The notes: generated from the letters alone by a model not told the origin. A stretch of DNA of 51,150 bases from Candidatus Nomurabacteria bacterium (GCA_029288805.1 JARIGO010000001.1:1-51150), one strand, 5' to 3'; shown: positions 12,966 to 48,057, counted from the stretch's first letter. Program-made: numbers and translations.

Positions 12966-13658
12966 TTTGTATGCTCCCAGTATTGCCGCTGTTTCTGTTC
13001 GTAATACTCGGGTAGTGATTTGTAAATGCTGCGGTTTGAATCTTTCGATGATGGCTTCGTCCTGTTCGTCCCATCCGCCTTCCGGTCCTACATAGAGCAC
13101 CATAGTGTCTGCCATCCGTTCAACATGGGATGTTGGACAGATAGGGTCAAGCACAACACTGTCAAAAGGGTAGGCTTCGAAACATTCTTTCAGCGTCATT
13201 GGTTCCGTGATATGTACGCGTCGCGTTCCTCCACATTGTTCTACCGCTTCGTCACTGATAGCTTGTAAGCGGTTGAGGCGAATAGATTGTTTAACGGTGC
13301 GATTAGTAAGCAACGGCACAATGGTGCTGACACCAATTTCTGTCAGTTTTTGCACCATCAGTTCAAATGCGTCACCTTTGACGATGCTGATAGCAGCAAT
13401 GATTGTTCGAGGCACAGCCACCACTGGTGCAATATCCTTAACAATACCGGTTAAAGATAGATCCGTAGTCATGCGTAGGGTAATGGTGTACTGCATTCCT
13501 TCATCCGCAAAAATTTGGATGTCTTCTCCTGGGCGGATTTTCAACACCCGATTGATCTGCTTGGTAATGCGGCTGTCATCAATAGTGATCTGATCACCAA
13601 TATTTTTTGCAGGAATATGTTCCACCAAAAAACGGTGGATTTTTTTGTGACTCATCAT
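12954..13658 (-). CDS. rsmE: 16S rRNA m3U1498 methyltransferase
   Basis: RVLKIRPGE, KGDAFELMVQKLTEIGV, EAVEQCG, VGPEGGW, RVLRTETA. Confidence 0.93.
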   Translation of the reverse strand: MMSHKKIHRFLVEHIPAKNIGDQITIDDSRITKQINRVLKIRPGEDIQIFADEGMQYTITLRMTTDLSLTGIVKDIAPVVAVPRTIIAAISIVKGDAFELMVQKLTEIGVSTIVPLLTNRTVKQSIRLNRLQAISDEAVEQCGGTRRVHITEPMTLKECFEAYPFDSVVLDPICPTSHVERMADTMVLYVGPEGGWDEQDEAIIERFKPQHLQITTRVLRTETAAILGAYKLLW

Positions 13659-14299
13659 ATTGGCAGGTGGATAAAGAATGGCGCATGTGGGGAGGTAAAG
13701 TTGTGTACCAATGCCAACACTGCCAAAGCCATAATAAGGATACCGATAATTTTATTCAATGCCACGGCCTTTTCATATCGCTTGCGTTGTGTGAAGGCAA
13801 TGTATGCTAGGACTGACCACCAAATAAATGCTCCAATAAAAAATCCGATGGCTACTTGGGCACGGGTAAACAATGGCTGGTCAATAAAACGGTTCAAGAA
13901 TAGACCGATAACGCCGAATGCCAAGTATGTAGAGGGATTGGTTAGCGCCAGCACAATAGAAGCGAAAAAATGCTTATGCCATGGCAAGTCTCGCTCGATA
14001 GTTTTCAAAGGGTCAGCCAATATCATGCGTAGACCATAAAAGAATACGATGAGACTGCCAATGATAAAGAGCCAGTTTGGTATGTGATAAAGACTTGTGC
14101 GGGAATGGTGTAGTCCTAAAAGAATGACAAGTGTTGCTGCGGTATCAATCAATGCAATTGCCAAGCCGGAAATAATACCAGCGCGAAGGCCGTGGTTGAC
14201 AGTTCGCTTCATAGTAATCAGTGCCACTGGGCCAAGAGGGAGGGAGATAATTATACCGATACCGATGCCCGATAGCAGACCAAGAAGGGATATATACAT
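13655..14299 (-). CDS. LysE-family translocator
   Basis: SLPLGPVALITMKRTVNHGLRAG and LALTNP, with about six TM segments. Confidence 0.85.
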   Translation of the reverse strand: MYISLLGLLSGIGIGIIISLPLGPVALITMKRTVNHGLRAGIISGLAIALIDTAATLVILLGLHHSRTSLYHIPNWLFIIGSLIVFFYGLRMILADPLKTIERDLPWHKHFFASIVLALTNPSTYLAFGVIGLFLNRFIDQPLFTRAQVAIGFFIGAFIWWSVLAYIAFTQRKRYEKAVALNKIIGILIMALAVLALVHNFTSPHAPFFIHLPI

Positions 14300-14305
14300 A
14301 AAAAC

Positions 14306-14749
14306 CTATTTTACTACAATTTGTCGGTATTCTCGACTGATAAAAAAGACCGTAATAACATTCACTACCAGTAACAGGATAGTGAACCAGGAAAAACTTT
14401 TGAACAATGTCACTATTTGATACAGACTGAAGCCTCCAAGCAGCACGATAGCCAATGGATAGGCCCAGAGACGGTTGGTCCATAATCCCCATACCAAAAT
14501 GAGCTTCACAATGCCGTGACTGAAAAAATATACAATGCCCATAGTCTGGTTTTGGGCTGAGATACTAAGAATAACCTTCTGCAAAATAGCAGAGAAAGGA
14601 TAATGTGAAAAATAAAGATATGCAGTGATACGCTGCTGGAAGACAAAGAATAGCCCTGCAAAAATATCTGTTATGGCAATACAGCCGTTAACGATAATGG
14701 TTGCAAAAAACGCCTTATGTAATAATTCATCCTCCTCTGTGGTTTCCAT
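14306..14749 (-). CDS. DUF2127 membrane protein
   Basis: YFFSHGIVKLILVWGLW..RLWAYP motif. Confidence 0.8.
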   Translation of the reverse strand: METTEEDELLHKAFFATIIVNGCIAITDIFAGLFFVFQQRITAYLYFSHYPFSAILQKVILSISAQNQTMGIVYFFSHGIVKLILVWGLWTNRLWAYPLAIVLLGGFSLYQIVTLFKSFSWFTILLLVVNVITVFFISREYRQIVVK

Positions 14750-14800
14750 GTATTATTACCAGTATACCGCATATTCAGTTTTTCGTAGTATTATGAATAT

Positions 14801-15247
14801 ATGGACATTCGAACCGCCCTCAAAAAACATTGGACCGTTATTGCCATTATAGGGTTGATATTTGTGCTGTTCTTTGAGGCACAGTATTTTATTCATTCTG
14901 TTGAGCACTTTTATTCGCAAGGTGAACTTCGTCCCATGTATCGCCACCGCGAAACCGAAATAGTTCCGCAGGCATCTCCGTCTGCCAAGGCCACCATTGC
15001 AACAGTAAAGAACGTTACAGTTACTCCTACGCTTAATGCCAGTAGCATTCAGTTGTGGATGACGTTTGACTACATCAATGTCGTGTGTAAGTTGCCAACA
15101 AATTATTTGAAAGATATTCTCGGCGCCAATGATCCACGGTATCCTAACGTGCGACTCGACACGTATGCGACTCGTAGCGGTATTGATCCGCAGGTCTTGC
15201 TCCGCACTGTGCAGCAGTATGTTGCCTCATATCAGAATACTCATTAG
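14801..15247 (+). CDS. Hypothetical membrane-anchored protein
   Basis: N-terminal TM and a WMTFDYIN motif. Cotranscribed with DedA. Confidence 0.7.
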   Translation: MDIRTALKKHWTVIAIIGLIFVLFFEAQYFIHSVEHFYSQGELRPMYRHRETEIVPQASPSAKATIATVKNVTVTPTLNASSIQLWMTFDYINVVCKLPTNYLKDILGANDPRYPNVRLDTYATRSGIDPQVLLRTVQQYVASYQNTH

Positions 15248-21782: not shown

Positions 21783-22952
21783 TTAGGAGTATTTTCTTTT
21801 GCTCCGAATGGTCGAGAATGCTTTGAGTTGTATTTTATTAAGTCGGGTAGGGGCCAAAGAAGTTAGCTCGCTGTAGACCCACAATTTCATAAGGGTAAAG
21901 TTCCAAATGAACGCTACCAATGTCGCCATGCATGCTGCCCAAATAGGATGGATGTGGAACAGACTCAAAAAGAGGGAAAGGGAAATAAGGTCCAAGGCCA
22001 GTCCGCCTGCCACTGTCAGATAGAAACGCACTATTTCCGTAATGCCCAATTTTGTTTTCTTTTTGAAGGTCCAATAGCGGTTGAAAAGGAAGCTTGAAAC
22101 CGTGCCGGCCAAGAATGAAATAATTTTTGCCACAATCAAATGGTCTGCAAAGAAATGATAGCGACTGATGAAATAGACATAGAGACCAAGATCAATCAGC
22201 GTATTAATGATGCCAACAATGGTGAATCGCACCATCTGTTCTCGGGGCAAGGCACCAAGACGACTCTGAAAGAGAGCGAATAATTCCTTAAATGCCCGGA
22301 TGATAACTTTGGGATGTGCGCCGGTAGCCACACCCTCGACACGAGCATAGTGTGAGACCGGAATTTCCTTAAAGGGAATTTTCTTACGCTGCAATCGAAT
22401 GAGCATCTCGGCGCTCATCATGGCGCCGCGGGTTTTTAGCGGTAGTGATGCCACCAGTTTTCGATCCATCAGTTTAAATGCACAATCAATGTCTTTGACT
22501 TTCAATCCAAACAATAAGCGATTTAAAAAATTCCACAATGCCGCATTCATGATGCGCAGGAAGTTGTCACGGCGTGGAGAGCGATAGCCAAGCACAATTT
22601 TATAATCAGGTACGAAGTGCATCAAAATGGCAAGCTCGGAAAAATCAAACTGCAAATCGGCATCAGTAAAAAAAATGTAATCGTATTGCGCCGCCTGAAT
22701 GCCACTCCACAGTGCCGCCCCATATCCTTTGTTGGGGTTGTGATGAACAACTTTGATATGCTTATTTTTTGCAGCCATTTCATCCGCAATTGCGCCAGTG
22801 TCGTCTTTGCTACCGTCATCAACAATGATGATTTCATAGGTAGAAGTCAGGGTGCTTACTACTGCCTCAGCCGCCTCCACACTATTGCGAATATTGGCTT
22901 CTTCGTTATAAGCGGGGAAAAATATTGAAAGGGAAATAGTTTGTTTATTCAT
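21783..22952 (-). CDS. GT2 polyprenol-phosphate glycosyltransferase (GtrB/DPM1-like) fused to a C-terminal GtrA domain
   Basis: FPAYNEE, IIVDDGSKD, NKGYGAA, FTDADLQF, DIDCAFKL, followed by RFTIVGIINTLID...FLFNRYWTF. Confidence 0.9.
   Translation of the reverse strand: MNKQTISLSIFFPAYNEEANIRNSVEAAEAVVSTLTSTYEIIIVDDGSKDDTGAIADEMAAKNKHIKVVHHNPNKGYGAALWSGIQAAQYDYIFFTDADLQFDFSELAILMHFVPDYKIVLGYRSPRRDNFLRIMNAALWNFLNRLLFGLKVKDIDCAFKLMDRKLVASLPLKTRGAMMSAEMLIRLQRKKIPFKEIPVSHYARVEGVATGAHPKVIIRAFKELFALFQSRLGALPREQMVRFTIVGIINTLIDLGLYVYFISRYHFFADHLIVAKIISFLAGTVSSFLFNRYWTFKKKTKLGITEIVRFYLTVAGGLALDLISLSLFLSLFHIHPIWAACMATLVAFIWNFTLMKLWVYSELTSLAPTRLNKIQLKAFSTIRSKRKYS
21799..21834 (+). repeat. Degenerate direct-repeat site S1 (att-like)
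   Basis: TTGCTCCGAATGGTCGAGAATG matches S2 (28469) at 20/22 nt. Overlaps the 3' end of the GT2-GtrA CDS. Confidence 0.7.
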
Positions 22953-23019
22953 ATCGTAGTAATAAGCATAGGGAAATACCCCCTTTATATAATACGAACG
23001 GATAATTACTATTACTTTC

Positions 23020-23712
23020 ATGCAGCAACATTATCGTTACAACATACTGCCGATCGTCTTTGGCGCAATACTGATCATCATGCTTTGCGCGGCAGGGAAC
23101 GTTTTTGCCGCACATCACGATAATAATGGTAATCATGGAAATGATACGCAAGCTCCAGCTGCGCAAAATACCACCGCCAGCACGCAGAGTCCTGCCACTG
23201 CTGATCCTGCTCCTACCAGTCCGGCCAACGATTCACCGGCTGCTACCCCAAGTGGTAATACACAGTCTCCTGCTACCTCACCAGCCTCCACTCCTTCCAC
23301 CACTGATCCTTCGCAGCCAAACAATCCGGCACCTCCATCACCTGCAGCAGTGGACGATGGAAAGGATAACGGAAATATGCATGATCATGGTAACGATGAA
23401 AATCAGCCGGTCGATACTGATATTTATAATGAAATCATACCGACTGTCGTTCCGTCACTTCCGGATCCGCCATCTGTTATTACTCATTCGGAATTTGATT
23501 CGGCTATCAAGTCTGCCATTACCAAGAATGCACCACAATTAGTCGATCGAATTCATGCCACTAAGTTCACTACCGCTTCAAATTACTACACGCCTACAGG
23601 GTTTAGCGCTACTACCACTCGAAACATAGAATATACGGCATATGGTATGGCGCTGGTCGGACTTATCATGATAATGCAAAACAAAAGGGTGCTTCAAAAA
23701 TTTACAGCTTAA
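23020..23712 (+). CDS. Pro/Ser/Thr-rich surface protein with signal peptide and C-terminal TM anchor
   Basis: Signal-like N-terminus (..NVFA), long PAST-rich tract, C-terminal YGMALVGLIMIM followed by basic residues. Confidence 0.7.
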   Translation: MQQHYRYNILPIVFGAILIIMLCAAGNVFAAHHDNNGNHGNDTQAPAAQNTTASTQSPATADPAPTSPANDSPAATPSGNTQSPATSPASTPSTTDPSQPNNPAPPSPAAVDDGKDNGNMHDHGNDENQPVDTDIYNEIIPTVVPSLPDPPSVITHSEFDSAIKSAITKNAPQLVDRIHATKFTTASNYYTPTGFSATTTRNIEYTAYGMALVGLIMIMQNKRVLQKFTA

Positions 23713-23732
23713 CATTATAAACAGTTATCTAT

Positions 23733-24971
23733 ATGGTGTCTTTCTTAACTCGGATGACGGTACTACAAAAAATAGGTCTCGCACTGCTCATCGTCGCCGT
23801 ACTTTTGTACATACTCGTGCGGTACGAAAATAGTCCTAAAGCGAAAGTGCCATTGGTATTCTCCCAAAAGGAACTGCTCTCAACATTATGGCAAGCATAT
23901 AAAAGCGATAACATTGAAAGCGGTAGTAATCGTACCCTTGATAAACAACAGAATAATATTACTACCTCCGAAGGAGAGAGTTATACCATGCTGCGAGCGG
24001 TATGGATGGATGACCAAGCGACGTTTGACGCTAGCTATAAGTGGACAACCGACATTCTGCAACACAAAAATGATCATTTGTTCAGCTGGCAATTTGGCCA
24101 ATTACCGGATAAAAAATATGGTGTCTTAACCAATCAAGGTGGTCAAAATGCCGCCAGTGATGCCGATAGTGATATTGCCCTGGCACTGCTCTTTGCACAT
24201 GAGAAATGGGGTAATCAATACTATCTTGATCAAGCCAAACTGATCATTAAAGACATATATAAAAATGAAGTGGTGACCATTAACGGCAAGCCTATTCTGG
24301 TTGCAGATGACGTTGAACAATTTTCGTCTAGTCGTGTGGTTATCAATCCCTCATACTTCGCACCATATTCGTATCGATTGTTTGCCATTGTGGATCCTCA
24401 GGATAATTGGAAGGGTGTCATCGACAGCAGTTATGATATTTTGCAGCAAACCACCACCATGCAGCTGAATGGCGTGAACGGCACGCTGCCGCCTAACTGG
24501 GTAGAGATGGATCATCACAGCGGCAGTATCCGTGCTGTTACTGATAATTCATCACTGACAACGCAGTACAGCTACGATGCCTTGCGCATTCCGTGGCGCA
24601 TTGCCTTGGATTGGCAATGGTATCAAGAACCGCGTGCCAAAAGCTACCTTGACTCATTGTCATTCTTTGAACAGCAATGGCAGGCTCATGGCAAACTCAG
24701 TACGGTCTACAACCATGACGGCAGTGCTCCTACAATCTTAGAAAGTCCGGCTATGTACGGCGGTGTCATTGGCTACTTCATGACCAGTGATCCTGCTGAT
24801 GCTAAAAACGTGTACGCTCAGAAACTGCAATTGTTGTACGATCCCGATACCAATGCTTGGCGTAAGGTCTTAAGCTATTACGATGACAACTGGGCCTGGT
24901 TCGGAATCGCCATGTACAATAACTTGCTGCCAAATCTCGGGTCGACTATTACCAGCCAAGAAGCGAAATGA
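23733..24971 (+). CDS. Glycoside hydrolase family 8 (BcsZ-like endoglucanase)
   Basis: TTSEGESYTMLRAV, ASDADSDIALAL, INPSYF, YDALRIPWRIALD. N-terminal TM anchor. Confidence 0.92.
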   Translation: MVSFLTRMTVLQKIGLALLIVAVLLYILVRYENSPKAKVPLVFSQKELLSTLWQAYKSDNIESGSNRTLDKQQNNITTSEGESYTMLRAVWMDDQATFDASYKWTTDILQHKNDHLFSWQFGQLPDKKYGVLTNQGGQNAASDADSDIALALLFAHEKWGNQYYLDQAKLIIKDIYKNEVVTINGKPILVADDVEQFSSSRVVINPSYFAPYSYRLFAIVDPQDNWKGVIDSSYDILQQTTTMQLNGVNGTLPPNWVEMDHHSGSIRAVTDNSSLTTQYSYDALRIPWRIALDWQWYQEPRAKSYLDSLSFFEQQWQAHGKLSTVYNHDGSAPTILESPAMYGGVIGYFMTSDPADAKNVYAQKLQLLYDPDTNAWRKVLSYYDDNWAWFGIAMYNNLLPNLGSTITSQEAK

Positions 24972-24972
24972 T

Positions 24973-26526
24973 ATGCAGCATCCTGAATATCCAAACGAAT
25001 TCCTTAACGGCAAGGTGTCAAAAATACTAATCATCCTGAACACTCTTCTGGCCAGTGTGTACTTCTATATCCTGGTCTTTGTCTTTCCGGTTGGTAACAA
25101 GGTTTTGTTTGGGCTGCTGGTATTCGGTGAGGTCTTTCACGTGTGGCAATTGCTTATGTTTCTTTACACCATCTGGGATCGTAAACGAACCGTGGCACCG
25201 GACCCGCAGTATTATCCCGCGGTGGATGTCTATGTCACAGTGGCCGGTGAGCCGGTCAGTGTTATTGAGGAAACGTTGCAAGGGATCACTGCTATGGATT
25301 ATCCGGATTTCAAAGTGTACATTTTGAATGATGGCTACGTGGCCAAAAAAGACAATTGGCAGGACGTTGAAACGTTGGCTGCTCAATACGGTGCCGTTGC
25401 TATCACCCGTAAAATCGGCGGAGGAGCCAAGGCGGGTAACATTAACAATGCGCTCAAGCAAACCGCCAATCCTTTCGTTGCTATTTTTGATGCCGACCAT
25501 ATCCCTCATATGGATTTCTTAAAAAAAACCGTACCGCATTTCAGTGATGAAAAAGTGGCCTTCGTGCAATCGCCGCAGTACTATAAAAATTTTCATGAAA
25601 ATGAGGTTGCCGGTGGTGCATGGGAGCAACAGCAACTCTTCTTCGGTCCGATCTGTGAAGGTAAGAATCGTCTTAACGCTACCACGATGTGTGGTACCAA
25701 CATGGTCATTCGCCGCGCCGCATTGATGGAAGTGGGCGGCATGTGCGAAGAAAGCATTGCTGAGGATTTTGCCACCGGCATGTTCATGCACTGCAGAGGC
25801 TGGCGGTCCGTGTATGTGCCAGAAGTGTTGGCCGAAGGATTGGCACCGGAAGACTTTTTGTCATACTACAAACAACAATTACGATGGGCTCGCGGGGGAT
25901 TGGATGTCTTGTTTAAATATAACGTGCTCTTTACTTCCGGGCTAACCTTTGCGCAGCGGCTGCAGTATCTTTCATCGGTCTCTTTCTTTTTCTCAGGCAT
26001 TGTGGTCGTGATTAATGCCGTCATTCCGCTTGTCTTTTTCTTCACCGGAGCAGTACCATTTCTCATTTCGACCATGGTGTTGGCAACAATCTTCTTACCG
26101 TACATATTCGTAACCTTGTATACATTGCAGACATCAACCAATTTTCACTTTACCTATCGATCATTGGCCTTTTCGGTCGGCTCATTCGGCATCCATATCA
26201 AAGCCTGGCTGTCGGCTTTGTTTGGCGGCAAGGCCACGTTTGAAGTGACATCAAAAAAGAAATTGAGCGGTAACTTTTTGAATTTGGTACGACCGCATAT
26301 CGCATACATTGTCTTGGCAATTGTCGGTGTCGGCTATGCCTTATGGCGCGATGGATTGACCGCCTCATTGGTTGCAAACGCTTCGTGGGCATTGATCAAT
26401 TCTATTCTCTTCAGTGAGTTTGTATTTGTAGCCATGCCGGAAAGTGAGATAAAGAAGGATGTCGATAAGAGCCGCAAGGTTGTGCGTAGCATTGTGATGA
26501 GGCCACGTAATATTTCAAACATATGA
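24973..26526 (+). CDS. Processive GT2 cellulose-synthase-like catalytic subunit, no PilZ domain
   Basis: NDG, AKAGNIN, FDADHIP, VQSPQ, CGTN, AED and QQLRW (D,D,D,QxxRW) with flanking TMs. Ends about 30 aa after the last TM. Start at ATG 24973. Confidence 0.9.
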   Translation: MQHPEYPNEFLNGKVSKILIILNTLLASVYFYILVFVFPVGNKVLFGLLVFGEVFHVWQLLMFLYTIWDRKRTVAPDPQYYPAVDVYVTVAGEPVSVIEETLQGITAMDYPDFKVYILNDGYVAKKDNWQDVETLAAQYGAVAITRKIGGGAKAGNINNALKQTANPFVAIFDADHIPHMDFLKKTVPHFSDEKVAFVQSPQYYKNFHENEVAGGAWEQQQLFFGPICEGKNRLNATTMCGTNMVIRRAALMEVGGMCEESIAEDFATGMFMHCRGWRSVYVPEVLAEGLAPEDFLSYYKQQLRWARGGLDVLFKYNVLFTSGLTFAQRLQYLSSVSFFFSGIVVVINAVIPLVFFFTGAVPFLISTMVLATIFLPYIFVTLYTLQTSTNFHFTYRSLAFSVGSFGIHIKAWLSALFGGKATFEVTSKKKLSGNFLNLVRPHIAYIVLAIVGVGYALWRDGLTASLVANASWALINSILFSEFVFVAMPESEIKKDVDKSRKVVRSIVMRPRNISNI

Positions 26527-28007
26527 ATACACAGTCTTGGATCAGTCGTAATAGAGCCGCCGTTGCCATTGTTGGATGCATGGTATTGGTAGTAGTGTTG
26601 TCTGCAGCCTTTTTCTTAAAGCAAAGCCTGCGTTTGGACGAATCGCAAAGCTTGTGGCAAACCAGTCACTCTGTCATGAAAATCTTTAATATTATCGCTC
26701 AGGATGTGCACGTACCGCTCTATCACATCATGCTGCATTTCTGGCAAATATTTTTTGGCAATGGTGTGGCCACAGCTCGAGTATTCTCGCTGCTGTTCTT
26801 TGTTCTAGCCATTCCGGCCCTCTTTAAATTGGCAAAGTTACTATATGGGGAAGAGGCGGCAATTTTTACCATCCTGCTCTTTTCCATCTCGCCATTCATG
26901 AATTGGTATGGCAATGAAATTCGCATGTACAGCCTCTTCACGCTAGTGGTGATATTGAATATGTACTATTTTGTCCGTATCTACAAGGAACGTGACTCGG
27001 AAGATCAAAATGCTATTTGGTTTTTGTATATCGTCACGGTTATTGCTGGCATCTTCACGCACTATTTCTTTTTCTTTGCACTGTTCAGTGAATTGATTTT
27101 CTTCATTACTCATCGTGACAAGTTTGCTCCCAATGCAACCAAGCGGTTTATCTGGACTATCGTGCTGGTTGTTGTTGCCTTTGCACCATGGGTACGATAT
27201 GTCTTGCATTTGGGCAGTATCAGTAATAGTGAGCCGTTACTGGCTCCACCGACATCCGTTAACGTGTTCAACACCTTTTCGCAATTCCTGTTCGGTTTTC
27301 AGATTAATTACGTCAACACCATCTTGGTGTCGTTCTGGCCGGTCACTATCTTGCTGGGTTTCCTAGCTCTGCGAAAACGTAAAACCATTTCCGCCGACAC
27401 CGCCTTCCTGGTTATCTGCTTTATTGTGCCGAATATTCTGGCATTTATCGTCAGTACTTTTGTCTTGCCGTTATATTTGAGTCGATATCTGATCTTCACA
27501 CTACCGCCTATGTATATGTTATTGGCAGCCTTAGCGGTATCCTATCCGCCCAAAATCAAAAAGCTTTTTATGGGTATCCTAATCAGCGTCATGATTGTGA
27601 CCCTGGGGGCGGAGATTGTCAGTGCACAAACACCAGTGAAGGAAGACTATAAGCAGGTCGTTAATTATATTCAAAGCCATTCGTCGTTTGATGATGTCAT
27701 TATTGTCTCAGCACCGTTTACAATCTATCCGATTGATTACTACTACAAAGGGCCGATAGCTGCCCAGACGTTGCCGATATGGAATCGTGACAACTATGGT
27801 CCTATACCGCCGTTCAATGAATCCACCTTGCCACAACAGGTCAAACAGATTACGGCAGGCAGTCGGAATGTTTGGGTCGTACTGAGTTATGACCAAGGGT
27901 ACGAAAAAAACATTCATGATTATTTCGAAAGTCATTATCAGAAACTATATCAGCAAGTTTTTTCTCCGGACCTGACTTTGTACGAATATAAGATACGATA
28001 CCCATAA
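26523..28007 (+). CDS. GT-C fold membrane glycosyltransferase (ArnT/PMT-like)
   Basis: SLRLDES near the N-terminus, DVHVPLYH, EIRMYSL, many TMs, and a C-terminal extracytoplasmic domain. Confidence 0.85.
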   Translation: MNTQSWISRNRAAVAIVGCMVLVVVLSAAFFLKQSLRLDESQSLWQTSHSVMKIFNIIAQDVHVPLYHIMLHFWQIFFGNGVATARVFSLLFFVLAIPALFKLAKLLYGEEAAIFTILLFSISPFMNWYGNEIRMYSLFTLVVILNMYYFVRIYKERDSEDQNAIWFLYIVTVIAGIFTHYFFFFALFSELIFFITHRDKFAPNATKRFIWTIVLVVVAFAPWVRYVLHLGSISNSEPLLAPPTSVNVFNTFSQFLFGFQINYVNTILVSFWPVTILLGFLALRKRKTISADTAFLVICFIVPNILAFIVSTFVLPLYLSRYLIFTLPPMYMLLAALAVSYPPKIKKLFMGILISVMIVTLGAEIVSAQTPVKEDYKQVVNYIQSHSSFDDVIIVSAPFTIYPIDYYYKGPIAAQTLPIWNRDNYGPIPPFNESTLPQQVKQITAGSRNVWVVLSYDQGYEKNIHDYFESHYQKLYQQVFSPDLTLYEYKIRYP

Positions 28008-28008
28008 T

Positions 28009-28446
28009 ATGAAATTACAGCTACTTCATCTCCAGCAACACGGATCATTGTTCCAGGCCATTCGCTTCATGATGGTTGGCGTTCTTAATACGCTTGTTGA
28101 TATCGTTGTGTATTTTATGCTCACTCGCTTCACGGGCTATTTCGATCATCATATTCTGATAACGAGAATCATTTCGTTTCTGTCCGGATCCGTCTGCAGC
28201 TTCATACTCAATCGTATTTGGACATTTGAAAAACGAGACAAAATCCAAGGTTGGGAATTGCTAAAATTCTACGTGACGGTTGGCATGAGCTTGTTGATCG
28301 GCCTCTTTTCAATGCAGTTCTTCATCAAGGCCTTTCATCTCTATGATCTGATTGCTTTGGCCATATCCATCATCTTCACGTTCATCTGGAATTTCACCAT
28401 TTCTAAATTCTGGGTATTCAAAAAGAAAGAAGAGTCATTTATATAA
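28009..28446 (+). CDS. GtrA-family flippase-like protein
   Basis: RFMMVGVLNTLVD, SFILNRIWTF, WNFTISKFWVF. Confidence 0.9.
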   Translation: MKLQLLHLQQHGSLFQAIRFMMVGVLNTLVDIVVYFMLTRFTGYFDHHILITRIISFLSGSVCSFILNRIWTFEKRDKIQGWELLKFYVTVGMSLLIGLFSMQFFIKAFHLYDLIALAISIIFTFIWNFTISKFWVFKKKEESFI

Positions 28447-28468
28447 AATGATAGCCACAGTTCATAAT

Positions 28469-28504
28469 TTGCTCCGAATGGTGGAGGATGTTCGAAAGTG
28501 TTTG
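28469..28504 (+). repeat. Direct-repeat site S2 (att-like)
   Basis: TTGCTCCGAATGGTGGAGGATGTTCGAAAGTGTTTG, 29/36 identical to S3. Its final TTG begins a TTGACA -35 box. Confidence 0.8.
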
Positions 28505-28541
28505 ACAGATTATGAAATAGAGGTAATCTGAAACAAAACAA

Positions 28542-28967
28542 ATGAATATGGAAAGGAAACACTTTTACAAGAACCATGAGGAGGTTATATCAATCCTTAC
28601 CAAAGACTACGGTTTTAGATATGACGGCCTGGGAGACAATTACGAAGAATGTTTTCGTAAAGCCTCAGATAAGCCCGAGACAATCTTTATTCACCCAATG
28701 TTTTGCTCATACTACATGGCTTCATCACATGTCCTATTTGCAGAGAGACTCCACGAGTTCAACGTTGAAAGTGATCATAAAAGTGAAAAAAGTCAGTTAA
28801 TCACTTTTCGAAAACTATTAATACATCTTGATGAAGTAGCAATAAAAGAAGGTCTGCCGACCGTATCGGCTGTTCAAAAGCTACCTAACCTTAAAGAGGC
28901 ATTACCAGTACCTACTTTTGTTAAACAGAAGAAATTGACTCTGTGGCAAAGATTAAGCCCTTGGTAA
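28542..28967 (+). CDS. Hypothetical protein (single-gene cassette between S2 and S3)
   Basis: 141-aa ORF with upstream TTGACA and downstream terminator 28987-29010. Confidence 0.7.
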   Translation: MNMERKHFYKNHEEVISILTKDYGFRYDGLGDNYEECFRKASDKPETIFIHPMFCSYYMASSHVLFAERLHEFNVESDHKSEKSQLITFRKLLIHLDEVAIKEGLPTVSAVQKLPNLKEALPVPTFVKQKKLTLWQRLSPW

Positions 28968-29010: not shown

Positions 29011-29014
29011 TTAT

Positions 29015-29050
29015 TTGCCCCGAACGCTGGACGATGTTCGAACCTGGTTG
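29015..29050 (+). repeat. Direct-repeat site S3 (att-like)
   Basis: TTGCCCCGAACGCTGGACGATGTTCGAACCTGGTTG. Resembles the antisense tRNA-Asn 3' end TGCTCCCCCGGTAGGATTCGAACCT (29419-29443). Confidence 0.8.
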
Positions 29051-29137
29051 ATAAAAGCGTGTCTCATATTTCAGTCTTACTTTTGGTATTTGTTATGGTC
29101 TATATAGTCGCAAATTTATTAAGCGCGACTGAGTTAA

Positions 29138-29347: not shown

Positions 29348-29420
29348 TCTCTTGCCGGGGTTCGCATTTTCAGAAAAGAAAAAACGCCCTTGAGAGGCGT
29401 CCTTTCTTTTCGTTCAAATG

Positions 29421-29492
29421 CTCCCCCGGTAGGATTCGAACCTACGACCAATCGCTTAACAGGCGACTGCTCTACCGCTGAGCTACAGGGGA
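29421..29492 (-). tRNA. tRNA-Asn(GTT)
   Basis: Minus strand TCCCCTGTAGCTCAGCGGTAGAGCAGTCGCCT-GTT-AAGCGATTGGTCGTAGGTTCGAATCCTACCGGGGGAG. CCA not encoded. Confidence 0.97.
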
Positions 29493-35669: not shown

Positions 35670-35709
35670 CTTTAAATAAAATTGAGCGCTCTTTTTGTAT
35701 AGTCACCAT

Positions 35710-36372
35710 ATGATGGCTTTACGAAAAATATCCTTTGCAGAAGGTGAGTATTATCATATTTATAGTCGCGGTAACAGCAAACAAAAAATTTTTCACGATG
35801 CTGCTGATTATCAGAGATTTATGATGTTGCTGTATGCCTGTAATCAAGAAAACGCTTTCAAGATCAACAATCTTCCAAAGGGTAAAAATATCTACGATAT
35901 TCAGATGGGAAAACGCATAACCTCATTAGGGACTTATTGTTTAATGCCCAATCATTTTCACCTTCTAGTTAAAGAGACGATGAGTGATGGAATTACCATT
36001 TTTATGAGAAAAGTTATGACTGCCTACGTTATGTATTACAATAAAAAATATAAACGAACCGGTAAGCTGTTTGAAGGACCGTTTATAGCAGAACATATTA
36101 CTGAAGATCGATATTTAAAATACCTATTTGCATATATTCATTTGAACCCAATAAAGCTTATCGATACCCAATGGAAGGAAAATGGTCTAAAAGATGTCTG
36201 TTCTGCCAAACGTTTTTTATCTTCGTATAAGTACTCAAGTTTTTTAACATATATTGAAATTCAACGGCCAGAAAACAAAATTATTACCCTCTCAGATTTT
36301 CCACCCTATTTTTCAAAAATAGGGGATATGTGGAAAGAGATAAACTCATGGCTTAATTATAAAATTAGCTAG
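35710..36372 (+). mobile_element. REP-associated tyrosine transposase (RAYT / Y1 HUH transposase)
   Basis: YYHIYSRG, YCLMPNHFHLL (HUH), YNKKYKRTGKLF, AYIHLNP, YSS. Start ATG 35710, 6 nt after TATAGT. Confidence 0.9.
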
Positions 36373-36389
36373 GAATTTCCTAGATAAAT
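36369..36389. repeat. REP-like palindrome, right of RAYT
   Basis: 21-nt direct repeat of the left copy, overlapping the RAYT stop codon. Confidence 0.85.
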
Positions 36390-36479
36390 GGCAGCACAGA
36401 TTTATTGACTTTTAATAATATTGTGATATAATGATACTGATAATAAACCAATAGATCTTTAACATAAAACTTAATAACC

Positions 36480-36998
36480 GTGAAAAAAGTACTGGTATTT
36501 CTAGCTTTTATTGTTGTTGCAAGCGTTGCATCAGCGCAGGAAATGTTCAATCCGTATCACTTTTATAATGACAATACAGCGTTAGTGATAGGCGATGGTC
36601 ATGTTCATTTTGAATATCCATTGTTCTACCATAATGACAGCATTCTGGTTCATCATGGTGTGCATTTCAGATACGATCGTTATGACAAAGAAATAAATAT
36701 GGCTGTAATGATTCGCACTCTTGAGACTAAGTATAAAAATAAGGGATTCAATATTGAAGACGGACTATCTCTTATTTATTCCTTCATCAAGGGCAATGGC
36801 ACAGTTAAGTCTGGCCAAACGCTAAACCGTAAGGGAAACTTTTTCATTATCAATGAAAATGGTAGAGCCTGGGCGATCTTAGTAGGGTGGTCTGATATCC
36901 AGCATAAATGGGCAATGCTTGCACTTGATGAAAGTGACATTAAGGGAGACGAATGGACTTATAACTGGAAATACGCCTCAGTTATTTGTAAAAATTAA
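36480..36998 (+). CDS. Hypothetical secreted protein (AT-rich)
   Basis: Signal peptide ending ASA-Q. Promoter TTGACT (36405)-16 nt-TGnTATAAT (36427). Confidence 0.75.
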   Translation: MKKVLVFLAFIVVASVASAQEMFNPYHFYNDNTALVIGDGHVHFEYPLFYHNDSILVHHGVHFRYDRYDKEINMAVMIRTLETKYKNKGFNIEDGLSLIYSFIKGNGTVKSGQTLNRKGNFFIINENGRAWAILVGWSDIQHKWAMLALDESDIKGDEWTYNWKYASVICKN

Positions 36999-37013
36999 AA
37001 AGGCGTAAAAGGC

Positions 37014-44003: not shown

Positions 44004-44480
44004 ATGAAGGTCATGAGAAAATCATTTTTGGTATTAATCGCACTGTTTTTTGTACTCGGTACCAGTCTGCCTGCGTCATTAGCGTACGGAGACAGTTCTG
44101 CTTCACCATTAAATGGCAACCCTACTAATCCTTCCACAGCTTCACCATTAAACGGTACGGGCAACGCTGCTACTCAGCAACCTGCTGGCCAGCCTTTGAA
44201 CATCCATCTCACCAATCCACTTGCCGGATCAGGTGTTACTGACATTCCTTCAGCAGTAAACAAGATCCTGACGGTAGTCATTAAGATTGCATTACCACTC
44301 ATCATCATTATGTTCATCTGGTCAGGTATTACCTTCATCTTTGCACGTGGTAATCCTAAGAAACTTGAGGATGCAAAGAGAATGTTCCTCTATACCATTA
44401 TCGGTACGTTGCTCATTCTCGGAGCATGGACCATTACTAACGCCCTTATCGGAACAGTTAATTCAATCATCACCCCATAA
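44004..44480 (+). CDS. TrbC/VirB2-like pilin 2 (start possibly 44013)
   Basis: LTNPL, IWSGITFIFARGNPKKLEDAK, IIGTLLILGAWTI. Confidence 0.85.
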   Translation: MKVMRKSFLVLIALFFVLGTSLPASLAYGDSSASPLNGNPTNPSTASPLNGTGNAATQQPAGQPLNIHLTNPLAGSGVTDIPSAVNKILTVVIKIALPLIIIMFIWSGITFIFARGNPKKLEDAKRMFLYTIIGTLLILGAWTITNALIGTVNSIITP

Positions 44481-44481
44481 T

Positions 44482-45324
44482 ATGAAATATTTTTTCGCCA
44501 CACTTACTTCCTTTGCATTGTTGTTCTCAGCTGCCATCGCTCATGCTGATGACATAAATTACACACCACCGACTGCCAGTCAGGTTATTCAGCAGTCTGA
44601 CTGTTCAGCAACCAATGTCGTTACCTCAACCTGTTATGAACGAATGTGTACCGGCCAATCAAATGAAGACTCTGTATCCTGTAACAATTTTGCCTCAACA
44701 TGGACCTCATCAAACAATCCAGACAACCCTCAGTGCTACAGTATCGGACCAACCAATGAGGATCAGTGCTGTCCAAACGGAGAAAGCGACTCACCGATAT
44801 GCGCAGCGTATGATACATACACTGATCGCGACGCTACAACTGAGGCGTACAGCAGAACCGTCATAGGTCAGGTGGGAAGTGGTACTCAAAATACCAACCC
44901 TGTAAATAATGCGTACTCTAATGGAGAGGGTAATCCATCATTAACCATTCCTACATACGATGCCGCTGCAGCAACGTCATGTTCCAACGTGAAGTTTACC
45001 AACCTTCTTAATATTGCGATCTGGGCGAAATGCATCATCGGTGTCATTATCATACCGGGCATATTCACGCTTGCCTTCGTAGTGTTCCTGTGGGGAGTAT
45101 TCAAGTTTATTCGTGCTTCAGAGGAAAAGGACAAGCAAGCAGGGAAGCAGTTCATTTATATGGGGCTCATCGGGCTATTTATCATGGTGGCCGTATGGGG
45201 CATTATCAACATTGCAATCAAAACCCTCGGTTTCAACTCGGTGGTACCGACCCTGCAGACCGACTATCTCAGCCCAAGTAGTGCCACCGCTATGCCTACT
45301 AGTACCTCTACCGGCACCAATTAA
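44482..45324 (+). CDS. TrbC/VirB2-like pilin 3 with Cys-rich N-terminal extension
   Basis: Signal AHA-D, 8-Cys domain, then VFLWGVFKFI...GLIGLFIMVAVWGII. Confidence 0.8.
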   Translation: MKYFFATLTSFALLFSAAIAHADDINYTPPTASQVIQQSDCSATNVVTSTCYERMCTGQSNEDSVSCNNFASTWTSSNNPDNPQCYSIGPTNEDQCCPNGESDSPICAAYDTYTDRDATTEAYSRTVIGQVGSGTQNTNPVNNAYSNGEGNPSLTIPTYDAAAATSCSNVKFTNLLNIAIWAKCIIGVIIIPGIFTLAFVVFLWGVFKFIRASEEKDKQAGKQFIYMGLIGLFIMVAVWGIINIAIKTLGFNSVVPTLQTDYLSPSSATAMPTSTSTGTN

Positions 45325-46202: not shown

Positions 46203-46964
46203 TTAATTCACCTTGTAGTCTGTAACCATAACCGATGTAGTTTTCTTGAGTTCGTATACACCCCAAGCGAAATGATCGCCAGCTGGTCCCAAGTAACCGT
46301 TTTTAATCTCGGTACTACTCAATGGTACGCCATCCGCATGTTCTTTTGTGAAGAAATGGTCTCGGCCGGTGCCATTTGAAATATTGAGATCAACCAGATA
46401 TTTATACGGCGTATTAGCCTTTAGCAATACCGTACCGTAGCCGATAGTCTGAATGGTTTGATATGAATCAATAACCTTTCTTTCATGAGGCTTACCAGCA
46501 TCCGGATTATGAACATACCGCGGAGCCTGGTCGGTAGGTTGGCTCCAGATGCATAAATGGTTATTCCGCAGATAAATGATAAACCATATAGCAAGCACTA
46601 AAGCCGCTAATCCTAACAGACTTCTGAATCCTTTACCAATGATATTGATAAATATAACAGATCCTTTTTTGTCCTTTTTTTCGCTATTTTTAGCACTTTT
46701 TTCAACCTTCACAGTTCTTCTACCGCTGAATATATTAGTTAAAAATACAACGATAAGCAGTGTGCCGATAATGCCCATAATAAGCAATTGCCAATCAAAG
46801 CCTTTGGTCTCTCCAGAACCTTTTGCAGGTGTGGTAGAAAAATCCCAATAGATGTAGCTTGCAAAAGCAATGATAGCCAAAACACCATAGATGATGCATC
46901 GTTTAATGAATTTTAAATAGCTAAAAGGTGCAGTGGTTTTTTCAATCGGTTCTTCATTTTGCAT
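46203..46964 (-). CDS. Hypothetical multi-TM protein
   Basis: Three TM segments. Likely start MQNEEP at 46964, overlapping the upstream gene's stop. Confidence 0.7.
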   Translation of the reverse strand: MQNEEPIEKTTAPFSYLKFIKRCIIYGVLAIIAFASYIYWDFSTTPAKGSGETKGFDWQLLIMGIIGTLLIVVFLTNIFSGRRTVKVEKSAKNSEKKDKKGSVIFINIIGKGFRSLLGLAALVLAIWFIIYLRNNHLCIWSQPTDQAPRYVHNPDAGKPHERKVIDSYQTIQTIGYGTVLLKANTPYKYLVDLNISNGTGRDHFFTKEHADGVPLSSTEIKNGYLGPAGDHFAWGVYELKKTTSVMVTDYKVN

Positions 46965-48057
46965 GTTCCGCCTCCTCTCTTTTACGCGCCCTGAAGACGT
47001 CTTTCCCTGCAACTTTTTCTGCAGATTCGAACATTTTCTCAAGGATAGTCGCGCCTATGGTTTTAGTTTCATGGTTTGCTTCAACAAGCATATTGGCCCT
47101 AGCGGCTTTAACCTTTGCTTCACCTTCATAAATTGTTGCAGCAACTTTAGTAACAGGATCAAAAAAAGAATCAATCTCAATTACATTCATTTCTGCCACA
47201 GCCTTTGCATCGTTAATTTCAGTTATGCGTTCCTGCACTCTGACATTTTCCTGTGCCTGCTGATTTAATGCTTCTTGCACCAAATCCTGCTCTTCCTTCT
47301 TGCGGTCATAATATTCATTGGTGTCTGCACCAGCGATCTTATTGAGGGCAATAGTGTGTACAACGCAGCCAAAGGGCTTAACTTTTGCATCAAGGTATTC
47401 CTTCATGTGAACATTTCCCTCAAAACAGATGTCTTTCTTTATGTCATCTATATCGAGTATCCTGATCTCCTCAACTCCTTTTTGGGCAGCCCACGGTCCT
47501 ATCTTTGACTGTAGGTCAATTTGACCGATCATCTTAAAGTCTGGTCGGCCAATTGGGCCCATGTCATCGATGATTTCGTAAATTACGGTGAAATCAAAGT
47601 TGTAGCTAAGTGTCTCTTTGGTCTTAACATCAATGAGGTAATTTACAGGCTCCCATATCAAATATGACGGAACTCGTTCATCACGCTCTGCAAAGATCAT
47701 TGTTGCCTTAGGGTCAACAGGCCGAGGATTTTTGAATTTCTTCTCGTCTGTTGCTCCTATTGTTTCGTTTGAACGATTTGCTGGAACAACCTCCGTCCAG
47801 TTTAGTGGAGGGTGGATTGGTTTGAATCCCAGCGGAAAGGGGATTTTAGAAAGCCACCACGGCAGTCTTTTTTGCTGCCGTTTGTCTACCCTGATGGAAC
47901 CGAGAATTCTTTTCCCGATACCCCAATAGTAAATATGGCCTTCTTCTGTACTAAGCGGTCTGCCTGGCAGATAGCCGGTACTAGTGTATGCAGCAATTAA
48001 TAGGCCGAAGTCTATAATCCCTGCCACAATGTGTGAAAAAAACAGTGTTAATAGCAT
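46954..48057 (-). CDS. SPFH/Band-7-like membrane-anchored protein
   Basis: N-terminal TM, beta-rich core (YNFDFTVIYEIID), and Ala/Glu-rich coiled tail. Own promoter TTGACA (48129-48134)-17 nt-TAAAAT (48106-48111). Confidence 0.55.
   Translation of the reverse strand: MLLTLFFSHIVAGIIDFGLLIAAYTSTGYLPGRPLSTEEGHIYYWGIGKRILGSIRVDKRQQKRLPWWLSKIPFPLGFKPIHPPLNWTEVVPANRSNETIGATDEKKFKNPRPVDPKATMIFAERDERVPSYLIWEPVNYLIDVKTKETLSYNFDFTVIYEIIDDMGPIGRPDFKMIGQIDLQSKIGPWAAQKGVEEIRILDIDDIKKDICFEGNVHMKEYLDAKVKPFGCVVHTIALNKIAGADTNEYYDRKKEEQDLVQEALNQQAQENVRVQERITEINDAKAVAEMNVIEIDSFFDPVTKVAATIYEGEAKVKAARANMLVEANHETKTIGATILEKMFESAEKVAGKDVFRARKREEAEHAK

Follow-up and report, generated by a model that had tools for sequence, protein, structure and literature searches.

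A PilZ-Less BcsA-Type Synthase Encoded with a GT-C Glycosyltransferase in a Conserved Gene Cluster of Candidatus Nomurabacteria and Other Bacteria

We examined a 51,150-nucleotide stretch of DNA from Candidatus Nomurabacteria bacterium (GCA_029288805.1 JARIGO010000001.1:1-51150; the whole stretch is referred to below as the window) and found that six genes at 21783-28446 encode a BcsA-type processive GT2 synthase without a PilZ domain, a GH8 hydrolase, a GT-C glycosyltransferase, a GT2-GtrA fusion protein, a free GtrA protein and a small anchored protein rich in proline, serine and threonine (PST). In related loci, GH8, synthase and GT-C form a conserved core, a near-invariant and tightly packed triad, with genes for a GtrB-like or dolichol phosphate mannose synthase (DPMS)-like GT2 and for GtrA as a variable periphery. 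Our reading of the cluster, for and against which we see the case as evenly balanced, is that a PilZ-independent beta-1,4-glucan synthase would work with a dedicated GT-C enzyme that glycosylates the emerging polymer from a polyprenyl-phosphate-hexose; both the acceptor and the sugars are what we infer.

Results

The synthase gene lies at 24973-26526 on the plus strand (Pfam GT2/Cellulose_synt). In phmmer comparisons with BcsA of E. coli and R. sphaeroides, its product matched at 2e-56 over BcsA residues 229-697, and the alignment to the E. coli protein ends at residue 697, just short of the PilZ domain; the synthase gave no match to PF07238 (PilZ). The motifs quoted in the original prediction proved to be real in alignments with BcsA and with the family: NDG (N119-D120-G121), DADH (D173-x-D175-H176), MCGTN (M239-C240-G241-T242-N243), AED in place of TED (A263-E264-D265, aligned where BcsA has TED) and QQLRW (Q301-x-x-R304-W305). 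The gating-loop motif FEVTSK (F423-x-V-T426-x-K428) is also present, and a family alignment of 26 homologues shows little or no variation in any of these catalytic, acceptor-binding and gating-loop motifs. An AlphaFold2 (AF2) model of the synthase (pLDDT 84) matched the BcsA structures 9b8v and 4p00 with a TMq of 0.81, a root mean square deviation of 3.0 to 3.9 Å and 28% identity. Its transmembrane (TM) helices are laid out as 2+2+2, with two before the GT domain and two before and two after the gating loop, plus interface helices; BcsA TM1-2 has no counterpart. This layout corresponds to the minimal six-TM core that a review has defined for cellulose synthases (PMC8892547).

The protein is thus a member of the BcsA-type GT2 superfamily, since the GT-A motifs, the TM channel, the interface helices and the FxVTxK loop are all in place. 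It is not BcsA proper, as it lacks PilZ and scores under the cut-off. Among NCBIfam models, the CelA-type cellulose synthase catalytic subunit was the best match by far (288 bits), followed by PgaC (91 bits) and NodC (59 bits). Taken together, these results show a complete BcsA-type polymerase/translocase without PilZ. As the original prediction had also maintained, PilZ, BcsB, BcsC and BcsG were not found among the 46 window open reading frames (ORFs) scanned with Pfam, and neither was a GGDEF domain. More than 2600 synthase homologues were found (as cluster representatives), the best 120 of which are 56 to 73% identical and 500 to 540 aa long. Because of these lengths, the most likely start of the synthase gene is the ATG at 24973 (MQHPEY..., 517 aa, 1 nt past the GH8 stop), rather than the beginning of the ORF at 24883.

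Downstream of the synthase gene, and overlapping it by 4 nt (ATGA), is a plus-strand gene at 26523-28007 for a GT-C fold glycosyltransferase of the polyprenyl-phosphate-sugar-dependent type (PMT_2, PF13231, 5e-11). Comparison of its profile with the PDB by sequence yielded nothing meaningful, and it was the fold search alone that placed the protein. With an AF2 model (pLDDT 82.6), the best Foldseek match was ArnT (5ezm/5f15; E 1e-6, TM-score 0.5 to 0.6), and the next were ALG12/ALG9, STT3, AftD and Pmt4 (E range 1e-6 to 1e-4), Pmt4 being structurally weaker than ArnT. PMT_2 is the only family that the window protein matches, and no match to PF02366 (PMT core) was found in it; a distant homologue, in locus L069, does match PF02366 (9e-6), and one homologue also matches the TMEM260-like O-mannosyltransferase family. 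Residues invariant in 36 homologues include R37-L38-D39-E40 right after TM1, D61/H63, E132/R134 and H180. The invariant R-L-D-E and the other polar residues argue that the GT-C is an active enzyme and not a relic. Sequence and model show an intact polyprenyl-phosphate-sugar-type transferase whose gene is tied to that of the synthase. The family is large, with more than 1100 cluster representatives. In the long GT-Cs (those of the high-GC loci L072 and L081, and the longer homologues from the candidate phyla radiation [CPR]), the extra C-terminal regions contain no Pfam domain.

The gene upstream of the synthase (23733-24971, plus strand; PF01270, 6e-47) encodes an endo-beta-1,4-glucanase-like protein, a BcsZ analogue held in the membrane by an N-terminal TM segment. 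Its catalytic SEG-E, its DAD-x-DIA signature and YDA-x-R are all aligned and conserved, and ASDADSDIALALLFAHEKW agrees with what we take to be the GH8 PROSITE signature. In the alignment, SEG-E and YDA-x-R are partnered by residues of Clostridium thermocellum endoglucanase CelA that are presumably E95 and D278. With signature and catalytic residues in place, the hydrolase is a GH8 family member. GH8 is not a family of glucanases only; it also includes chitosanases, xylanases and a Listeria exopolysaccharide (EPS) hydrolase. The closest PDB match of the window protein was CelA itself (1cem, 2e-31), and chitosanases and xylanases were also among its matches.

To these three genes we compared approximately 90 loci in all, 80 of them metagenome loci fetched with the synthase alignment and subjected to ORF calling; a scan of genome contigs with the single synthase protein, its patterns taken from poorly conserved stretches, gave only 2 loci. 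When the neighbouring genes were clustered, the synthase family was found in 77 loci, GT-C in 70 and GH8 in 56, and the next family in 12. The GT-C gene is immediately downstream of the synthase gene and on the same strand in 56 of the 62 loci where the contig allows this to be seen, with the 4-nt overlap in 20 of those 56, and in at least 6 of the remaining loci it is immediately upstream. In 44 of 60 loci, the synthase gene is immediately preceded by that for GH8. The same picture emerged when the GT-C was taken as the starting point, as three of three independently chosen homologues sit behind a GH8-synthase pair. The synthase/GT-C pairing is retained even in high-GC clades, at 37 to 41% identity. 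The original prediction called for a survey of synteny across CPR genomes, and in ours the genes do co-occur, in dozens of independent contigs; because of this recurrence, the arrangement is not a chance juxtaposition. The prediction had also joined the synthase to a GtrA/GtrB/GT-C decoration system. That coupling is real and stronger than had been claimed, given the near-obligate abutting GT-C gene and the fusions described below, with the qualification that GT-C belongs to the core, as a partner of the synthase, and is no add-on for decoration that is nearby by accident, and that GtrA and the GtrB-like GT2 are peripheral.

In Paceibacteria, the recurrent order is a divergent GT2-GtrA gene, a small anchor protein, GH8, synthase, GT-C and, in some loci, GtrA. 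The closest relative of the window cluster, L083, has the same six genes. In Saccharimonadia (L087), the order is GT2-GH8-synthase-GT-C. More than a thousand uncultured CPR bacteria have the synthase/GT-C pairing, as do a few cultured actinobacteria. Among cultured organisms, the cluster is present in Geodermatophilus, Modestobacter, Klenkia and Quadrisphaera; its order in Geodermatophilus obscurus DSM 43160 (L086; CP001867.1, 233641-251275) is GtrA-GT2-GT4-GH8-synthase-GT-C, with a convergent GH6 gene. Pfam matches to BcsB, BcsC and BcsG were absent from the gene tables of L083, L086, L087 and L089-L091, and neither the window nor those related loci that were examined yielded a gene for a GlxA copper radical oxidase.

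A number of relatives carry gene fusions. In five loci of 63 to 66% GC (L075, L079, L080, L081 and L082), a PF00535 GT2 is fused to the N terminus of the synthase (approximately 830 to 930 aa), and a GT-C of approximately 820 aa follows, the C-terminal 340 or so residues of which have no Pfam match. In L060 (11425-13929), the GT-C carries a C-terminal GH6 domain (3.7e-47), and no GH8 gene lies upstream of that synthase. GH6, a family known solely for cellulases, is also encoded beside the cluster in L083, L086 and L089. In L044 (6753-9961), a PF00535 GT2 is followed by PF03706 (LPG_synthase_TM), which we read as flippase-like, fused to GH8, and a second GH8 gene (13410-14951) comes after the GT-C. 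Finally, an 887-aa distant BcsA-like GT2 of Candidatus Woesebacteria (L001:2558-5221; MGHI01000002.1) has a C-terminal GH26, presumably a mannanase family. This fusion suggests that another polymer is made in that lineage; judged from it, the hydrolase family may track the type of polymer that is made, and the same logic has been used elsewhere to infer polymer type (PMC7710045).

The synthases of the actinobacterial loci (L086, L052 and L043; Geodermatophilaceae and Quadrisphaera) are 59 to 68% identical to the Saccharimonadia proteins. In a neighbour-joining tree of corrected distances, which suffices to assign sequences to clades but not to settle fine branching, the actinobacterial sequences formed one clade (100/100 replicates) that grouped with Saccharimonadia and apart from Paceibacteria (100/100), and was nested within Saccharimonadia in 65/100; the Paceibacteria sequences were monophyletic in 98/100 bootstraps. 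Because of this grouping with Saccharimonadia, it appears that the cluster has passed from one phylum to another on at least one occasion, by horizontal transfer between Saccharibacteria and Actinobacteria.

The two remaining glycosylation genes of the window stand at the edges of the cluster. The GT2-GtrA fusion, a candidate polyprenyl-phosphate hexose synthase, is encoded on the minus strand at 21783-22952 (PF00535, 6e-30; PF04138, 9e-25). Its best PDB match was the full-length Pyrococcus DPMS (5mlz, 1.8e-18, query residues 27-371), followed by the GtrB protein sll0501 (1.6e-17) and ArnC (8e-15), and these matches argue for a polyprenyl-phosphate hexose synthase with the architecture of DPMS. 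Its top NCBIfam matches, all below cut-offs, were ArnC, AglJ and PpgS, which are polyprenyl-phosphate glycosyltransferases. The most likely gene start is at 22952 (MNKQTISL..., 389 aa; the L083 orthologue has 374 aa), as the ORF originally drawn, which extends to 23021, overlaps the start of the divergent PST gene. PF04138 occurs a second time (1.5e-26) in the stand-alone, four-helix GtrA-family membrane protein encoded at 28009-28446 on the plus strand, which is a candidate to flip or escort the polyprenyl-phosphate-sugar. A 51-nt inverted repeat (22179-22229 and 28063-28113, 73% complementary) arises simply because two paralogous GtrA domains are encoded on opposite strands, and it is no structural element. 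The genes around the synthase thus comprise the parts of a three-component glycosylation system: a synthase of the GtrB/DPMS/ArnC type, a GtrA protein and a GT-C with an acidic residue in its first outer loop. The divergent GT2-GtrA position is also filled in L083, L090 and L091, and that of the free GtrA in L083. More generally, matches to DPMS-like GT2 beside the triad number 18, 3, 0 and 1 in successive 2-kb bins, and those to GtrA 8, 1, 0 and 0.

Between the divergent GT2-GtrA gene and GH8 lies the gene for the PST protein (23020-23712, plus strand), a secreted protein of 230 aa that is rich in P, S, T, A and Q. The original prediction of an anchored protein was borne out by TM segments at both ends, the N-terminal one being a signal/TM segment. 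Its only Pfam match was to Mucin, below threshold, and a phmmer search found no homologues because of its low complexity. In L083, its counterpart is built in the same way and shares a juxtamembrane motif with it. A hidden Markov model (HMM) of the C-terminal juxtamembrane/TM region gave 18 significant matches among approximately 5000 six-frame ORFs of related loci, and all 18 lie directly upstream of GH8 or in the ORF of GH8 itself; ORFs of 176 to 210 aa without Pfam matches occupy this position in L083, L089, L090 and L091. The PST-rich tail-anchored protein is, then, a fourth cluster member in many Paceibacteria, conserved by position.

All six ORFs were recovered by ORF calling and Pfam at the coordinates first proposed for them, and the five plus-strand genes are tightly packed, with successive gaps of 20, 1, -4 (the ATGA overlap) and 1 nt. 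Scans for promoters and terminators within the window did no better than on shuffled sequence. The host was correctly recognized as a CPR bacterium and is Paceibacteria-like, the nearest homologues being from Nomurabacteria and Paceibacterota (Taylorbacteria and Adlerbacteria are also among the top homologues) and the 16S rRNA carrying an insertion. This 3′ part of the 16S rRNA (1-525) has 146 nt where the Rfam model has 13 nt, and it ends in GAUUAACUCAAAU, not in GAUCACCUCCUUU, so that it lacks a conserved anti-Shine-Dalgarno sequence; the genes that come next are those for DUF192 and ribonucleotide reductase, with no 23S. Towards the other end of the window are three small ORFs resembling T4SS-pilin/TrbC-VirB2 (PF18895; 43594-43992, 45400-45801 and 45816-46145), interleaved with ORFs that have no Pfam match, such as 44287-45324 and 46954-48057.

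Discussion

We regard it as very probable that this locus encodes a processive polysaccharide exporter, and a functional coupling of synthase and GT-C is also highly likely. The backbone is probably a glucan, its sugar and linkage being suggested by the relationships of the synthase and the hydrolases. That the glucan is the acceptor of the GT-C is an evenly poised proposition, to which synteny and the gene fusions point. According to our working model, the synthase would polymerise a cellulose-like beta-1,4-glucan from a UDP-sugar at the cytoplasmic face and thread it through its own six-helix channel, and the GT-C, beside the channel exit, would add single sugars from a polyprenyl-phosphate-hexose onto the emerging chain at the outer face. 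The lipid-linked donor would be made at the inner face by the DPMS-like GT2-GtrA protein, and GtrA-type membrane domains (the free GtrA or the fused TM domain) may help to present it outside; we assign these roles because of the known three-component glycosylation scheme and of homology. GH8 would trim or release chains in the manner of BcsZ, with GH6 added in some relatives, and the PST-rich protein could be an accessory subunit, serving either to anchor the complex in the membrane or as a glycosylated surface component. The outcome would be that a CPR cell with a wall and no outer membrane is covered by a glucan layer that is branched or decorated, and such a polymer may act as an adhesion matrix.

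In favor of a glucan product are the closeness of the GH8 to the cellulases CelA and BcsZ and the presence of GH6 beside the cluster or fused to it. The donor pathway is linked to the triad by the proximity of GT2 and GtrA genes, by the GT2::synthase and LPG_synthase_TM::GH8 fusions and by the 5mlz match. Several observations weigh against this interpretation. The synthase falls under the cut-offs of the NCBIfam equivalog models for BcsA proper (TIGR03030/NF008558), at 288 versus 699 bits and 222 versus 992 bits, although we attribute the low CelA score to the missing PilZ part; likewise, GH8 reaches 130 bits against the BcsZ model, whose cut-off is 299. Approximately half of the loci with sufficient flank have no DPMS-like GT2 or GtrA gene within 8 kb, which would mean that in those genomes the donor pathway is encoded elsewhere, and the GT-C::GH6 fusion is a single example (L060). 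Pairs of a BcsA-like GT2 and GH8 can also make other polymers, such as the N-acetylmannosamine (ManNAc) polymer of the Listeria Pss system. Two large GH113 genes (L090:9017-13419, Patescibacteria) lie 1.5 kb downstream of a GT-C gene. Because the GH113 family reportedly comprises endo-mannanases and nothing else (PMC7710045), these genes may be a hint that the polymer contains or carries mannose. Lastly, an enzyme of the PMT_2 type has an obvious alternative acceptor in the P/S/T-rich protein that the operon also encodes.

It is this last point that leads to the alternative of protein O-glycosylation, whereby a PMT-like GT-C would modify the PST anchor or other surface proteins and the glucan would be exported unmodified, the genes having no more in common than a shared surface layer. 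The PMT_2 assignment, the D-E pair after TM1 (as in PMTs), the homologue that matches the TMEM260-like O-mannosyltransferases and the recurrence of the anchored protein in many Paceibacteria operons would all fit, but GT-C and synthase stay paired even where there is no PST gene close by (L087, L086 and the high-GC clades), the GT-C::GH6 and GT2::synthase fusions link glycosylation to glucan enzymes and not to a protein substrate, and ArnT, not PMT, is the best structural match to a protein without PF02366. On balance, we think this explanation rather unlikely. The polymer could, instead, be something other than a glucan, for example a mannan, a glucomannan or an N-acetylhexosamine polymer for which the GH8 is specific. 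Here the breadth of the GH8 family, the L090 GH113 genes and the difference between MCGTN and the FFCGS of BcsA have to be set against the clear lead of the cellulose synthase model over PgaC and NodC, the kinship of the GH8 with cellulases and the recurrent GH6, and to us these make a different polymer unlikely.

Two further alternatives concern what the GT-C does for the synthase. It may be mainly a structural co-polymerase like BcsB or GlxA, stabilising the channel or guiding the chain, with its transferase activity secondary or aimed at another target. BcsA needs the TM anchor of BcsB, and CslA needs GlxA (PMC8892547, PMC11022532); the synthase described here lacks both BcsA TM1-2 and any BcsB, and the coupling of the two genes is very tight. 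A mainly structural role is nevertheless improbable in our view, as R37-L38-D39-E40, D61, H63, E132 and R134 would hardly be invariant in a protein that is not an enzyme and as the enrichment of donor-making GT2 genes and the fusions would be left unexplained; the two roles can, moreover, coexist. Indeed, Streptomyces CslA has no activity in the absence of GlxA, the membrane partner to which it is translationally coupled (PMC11022532), and on this precedent the GT-C can be read as an equivalent of BcsB or GlxA that is also an enzyme. We offer as a tentative and somewhat doubtful extension that synthase and GT-C make up an obligate two-enzyme machine that would branch a beta-glucan during secretion, with the GT-C as both co-polymerase and side-chain transferase. 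One could also envisage that the glucan is lipid primed or anchored, the synthase elongating a polyprenyl-phosphate-hexose primer made by the DPMS-like GT2 or the GT-C transferring the chain end to an acceptor; in both cases the glucan would be anchored to membrane or wall and not decorated with side chains. The five high-GC loci in which a lipid-sugar synthase and a polymerase share one polypeptide, and the constant presence of GT-C, are compatible with this idea. Nothing in the sequences demands such a mechanism, however; BcsA-type enzymes extend their chains in the cytoplasm, at the non-reducing end, and are not known to need lipid primers, and monophosphate-donor GT-Cs, to our knowledge, transfer single sugars, all of which makes it very improbable.

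The original prediction also held the block to be mobile, on account of what flanks it, and this part of it we could not sustain. A direct repeat of 23 to 39 nt (core TTTGCyCCGAAyGsTsGAsrATG; 3 matches versus 0.22 expected) occurs on the plus strand at 21797-21835, within the last 17 or so codons of the GT2-GtrA ORF and at the left edge of the block; at 28467-28505, 21 nt past the GtrA stop and at its right edge; and at 29013-29051, after a 141-aa ORF and approximately 370 nt from a tRNA-Asn gene (29420-29492, minus strand). That ORF (28542-28967) is an orphan without a Pfam match and sits exactly between the second and third copies. If these repeats marked the ends of an island, mobile or recently transferred, that carried the six genes, one could account for the exact bracketing of the block by two copies, the third copy near a tRNA gene, the weak likeness of the motif to the 5′ acceptor/D-arm of tRNA-Leu(TAA) (marginal after multiple testing), the occurrence of the same six genes between entirely different flanks in L083 and the crossing of the cluster between Saccharimonadia and Actinobacteria. 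Against this, neither the block nor its immediate surroundings contain an integrase, transposase or relaxase, the GC content of the block (0.42 to 0.48) is like that of its surroundings, and its flanks are housekeeping genes, including those for HIT, a cation efflux protein and pyruvate kinase. Equivalent repeats do not bracket the L083 cluster, the motif is absent from 82 related loci and has no significant RNA fold on either strand, and the monophyly of the Paceibacteria sequences fits mainly vertical descent. A mobile cassette thus has, in our estimation, a slim chance of being correct; the repeats and the change of flanks in L083 are compatible with past rearrangement or transfer and do not amount to a recognisable mobile element. 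Elsewhere in the window, a weak match to an IS200-like Y1 transposase (1e-6; 35695-36372) lies beside the kilobase of lowest GC (36001-37000, 0.335).

How CPR cells build their surface is a question on which this cluster bears directly. Despite the tiny genomes of these bacteria, four to six genes have been kept at 50 to 70% protein identity across two CPR classes, and such retention suggests a surface polymer that is important to organisms thought to live attached to a host. Should our glycosylated-glucan reading be right, this would be the first BcsA-type synthase-dependent system with a GT-C as its fixed partner, to stand beside BcsA-BcsB and CslA-GlxA; it would link synthase-dependent export with three-component outer-face glycosylation, which are usually treated separately. 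On the more doubtful extension to an obligate two-enzyme machine, there would also be a new class of glycosylated cellulose-like polymer, which Paceibacteria and Saccharimonadia would use as a major part of their envelope or for attachment, and Saccharibacteria would have exchanged the cluster as a whole with Actinobacteria, the latter being the phylum of the hosts of cultured Saccharibacteria. As far as we have found, the family, though large, is unstudied, and because cultured Geodermatophilus, Modestobacter, Klenkia and Quadrisphaera have the same cluster, the question can be tested directly. The location of GH8 and GH6 in a biosynthetic operon has consequences for the reading of metagenomes as well. 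GH8 genes are counted as cellulases in CPR genomes and taken as signs of carbon degradation (e.g., PMC12153355), and at least some of these GH8 and GH6 "cellulase" genes would, on the same extension, be biosynthetic accessories. For the present locus, a purely catabolic role, with the GH8 as a cellulose degrader among unrelated neighbors, is one that we reject on account of the invariant, tightly packed GH8-synthase-GT-C order.

In the literature searched, which left most subscription journals outside its scope, we found no description that ties cellulose synthase to CPR, Patescibacteria, Parcubacteria, Saccharibacteria or Geodermatophilus in the sense meant here, and none of a pairing of a BcsA-type synthase with a GT-C. 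Among known systems, the cluster would seem to resemble most a Bcs-type synthase-dependent pathway combined with Gtr-type three-component glycosylation. As in the Listeria PssA-E/PssZ and Bacillus YdaJ-N systems, a BcsA-like GT2 is combined with GH8 in a monoderm. The Listeria polymer has a beta-1,4 ManNAc backbone with single-sugar side branches, and these systems have c-di-GMP receptors (PssE and YdaK) and BcsB-like subunits and no GT-C. With the proteobacterial BcsA-BcsB(-BcsZ-BcsC) system (PDB 4hg6, 4p00, 7lby and 9b8v; PMC8892547), the cluster shares D, DxD, (T/A)ED, QxxRW, FxVTxK and the TM channel, as well as a GH8 gene beside the synthase gene. Unlike that system, it has no PilZ and so no c-di-GMP gate through PilZ, it lacks BcsA TM1-2, BcsB, BcsC, BcsG, BcsE and BcsQ, and the partner of its synthase is a GT-C. 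With a BcsZ-like GH8 present and BcsB and BcsC not found, it fits none of the Bcs operon types I to III.

The CslA-GlxA-CslZ system of Streptomyces, in which CslZ is reportedly a GH6 enzyme, differs in that the partner there is the copper radical oxidase GlxA and here a GT-C, and in that a polyprenyl-phosphate-sugar pathway is attached to the present cluster. While CslA keeps part of the PilZ motif and responds to c-di-GMP, the synthase family described here ends after the last TM helix. What the two have in common is a monoderm-type synthase without BcsB, a translationally coupled, membrane-anchored partner whose fold is unrelated to that of BcsB and an endoglucanase in the cluster (PMC11022532). 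The clostridial CcsZABHI system (PMC7710045) likewise is a Gram-positive-type cluster of a tethered hydrolase, a synthase, a membrane accessory and a polymer-modifying module; however, CcsA has a PilZ domain, the hydrolase is a GH5 and the modification is O-acetylation by MBOAT/DHHW proteins and not glycosylation by a GT-C. The present cluster belongs neither to this system nor to that of Streptomyces.

The GtrA/GtrB/GtrX, CsbB/GtcA/YfhO and ArnC/ArnT systems have, as does the cluster, a cytoplasmic GT2 that makes a lipid-linked sugar, a GtrA-type protein and an outer-face GT-C, and the acceptors named for them are O-antigens, teichoic acids, rhamnose polysaccharides and lipid A (PMC11127046, PMC7389260). 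The difference is that in the present case these components are genetically joined to a synthase-dependent polymerase of the BcsA type. We know of no described pairing of the two. Finally, the GT2-GtrA protein shares with the DPMS of Pyrococcus furiosus (5mlz) a GT2 domain followed by a C-terminal, four-helix GtrA/DPMS TM domain, but whereas the archaeal enzyme belongs to N-glycosylation, the protein described here is a bacterial, CPR-encoded one that is part of an EPS operon.

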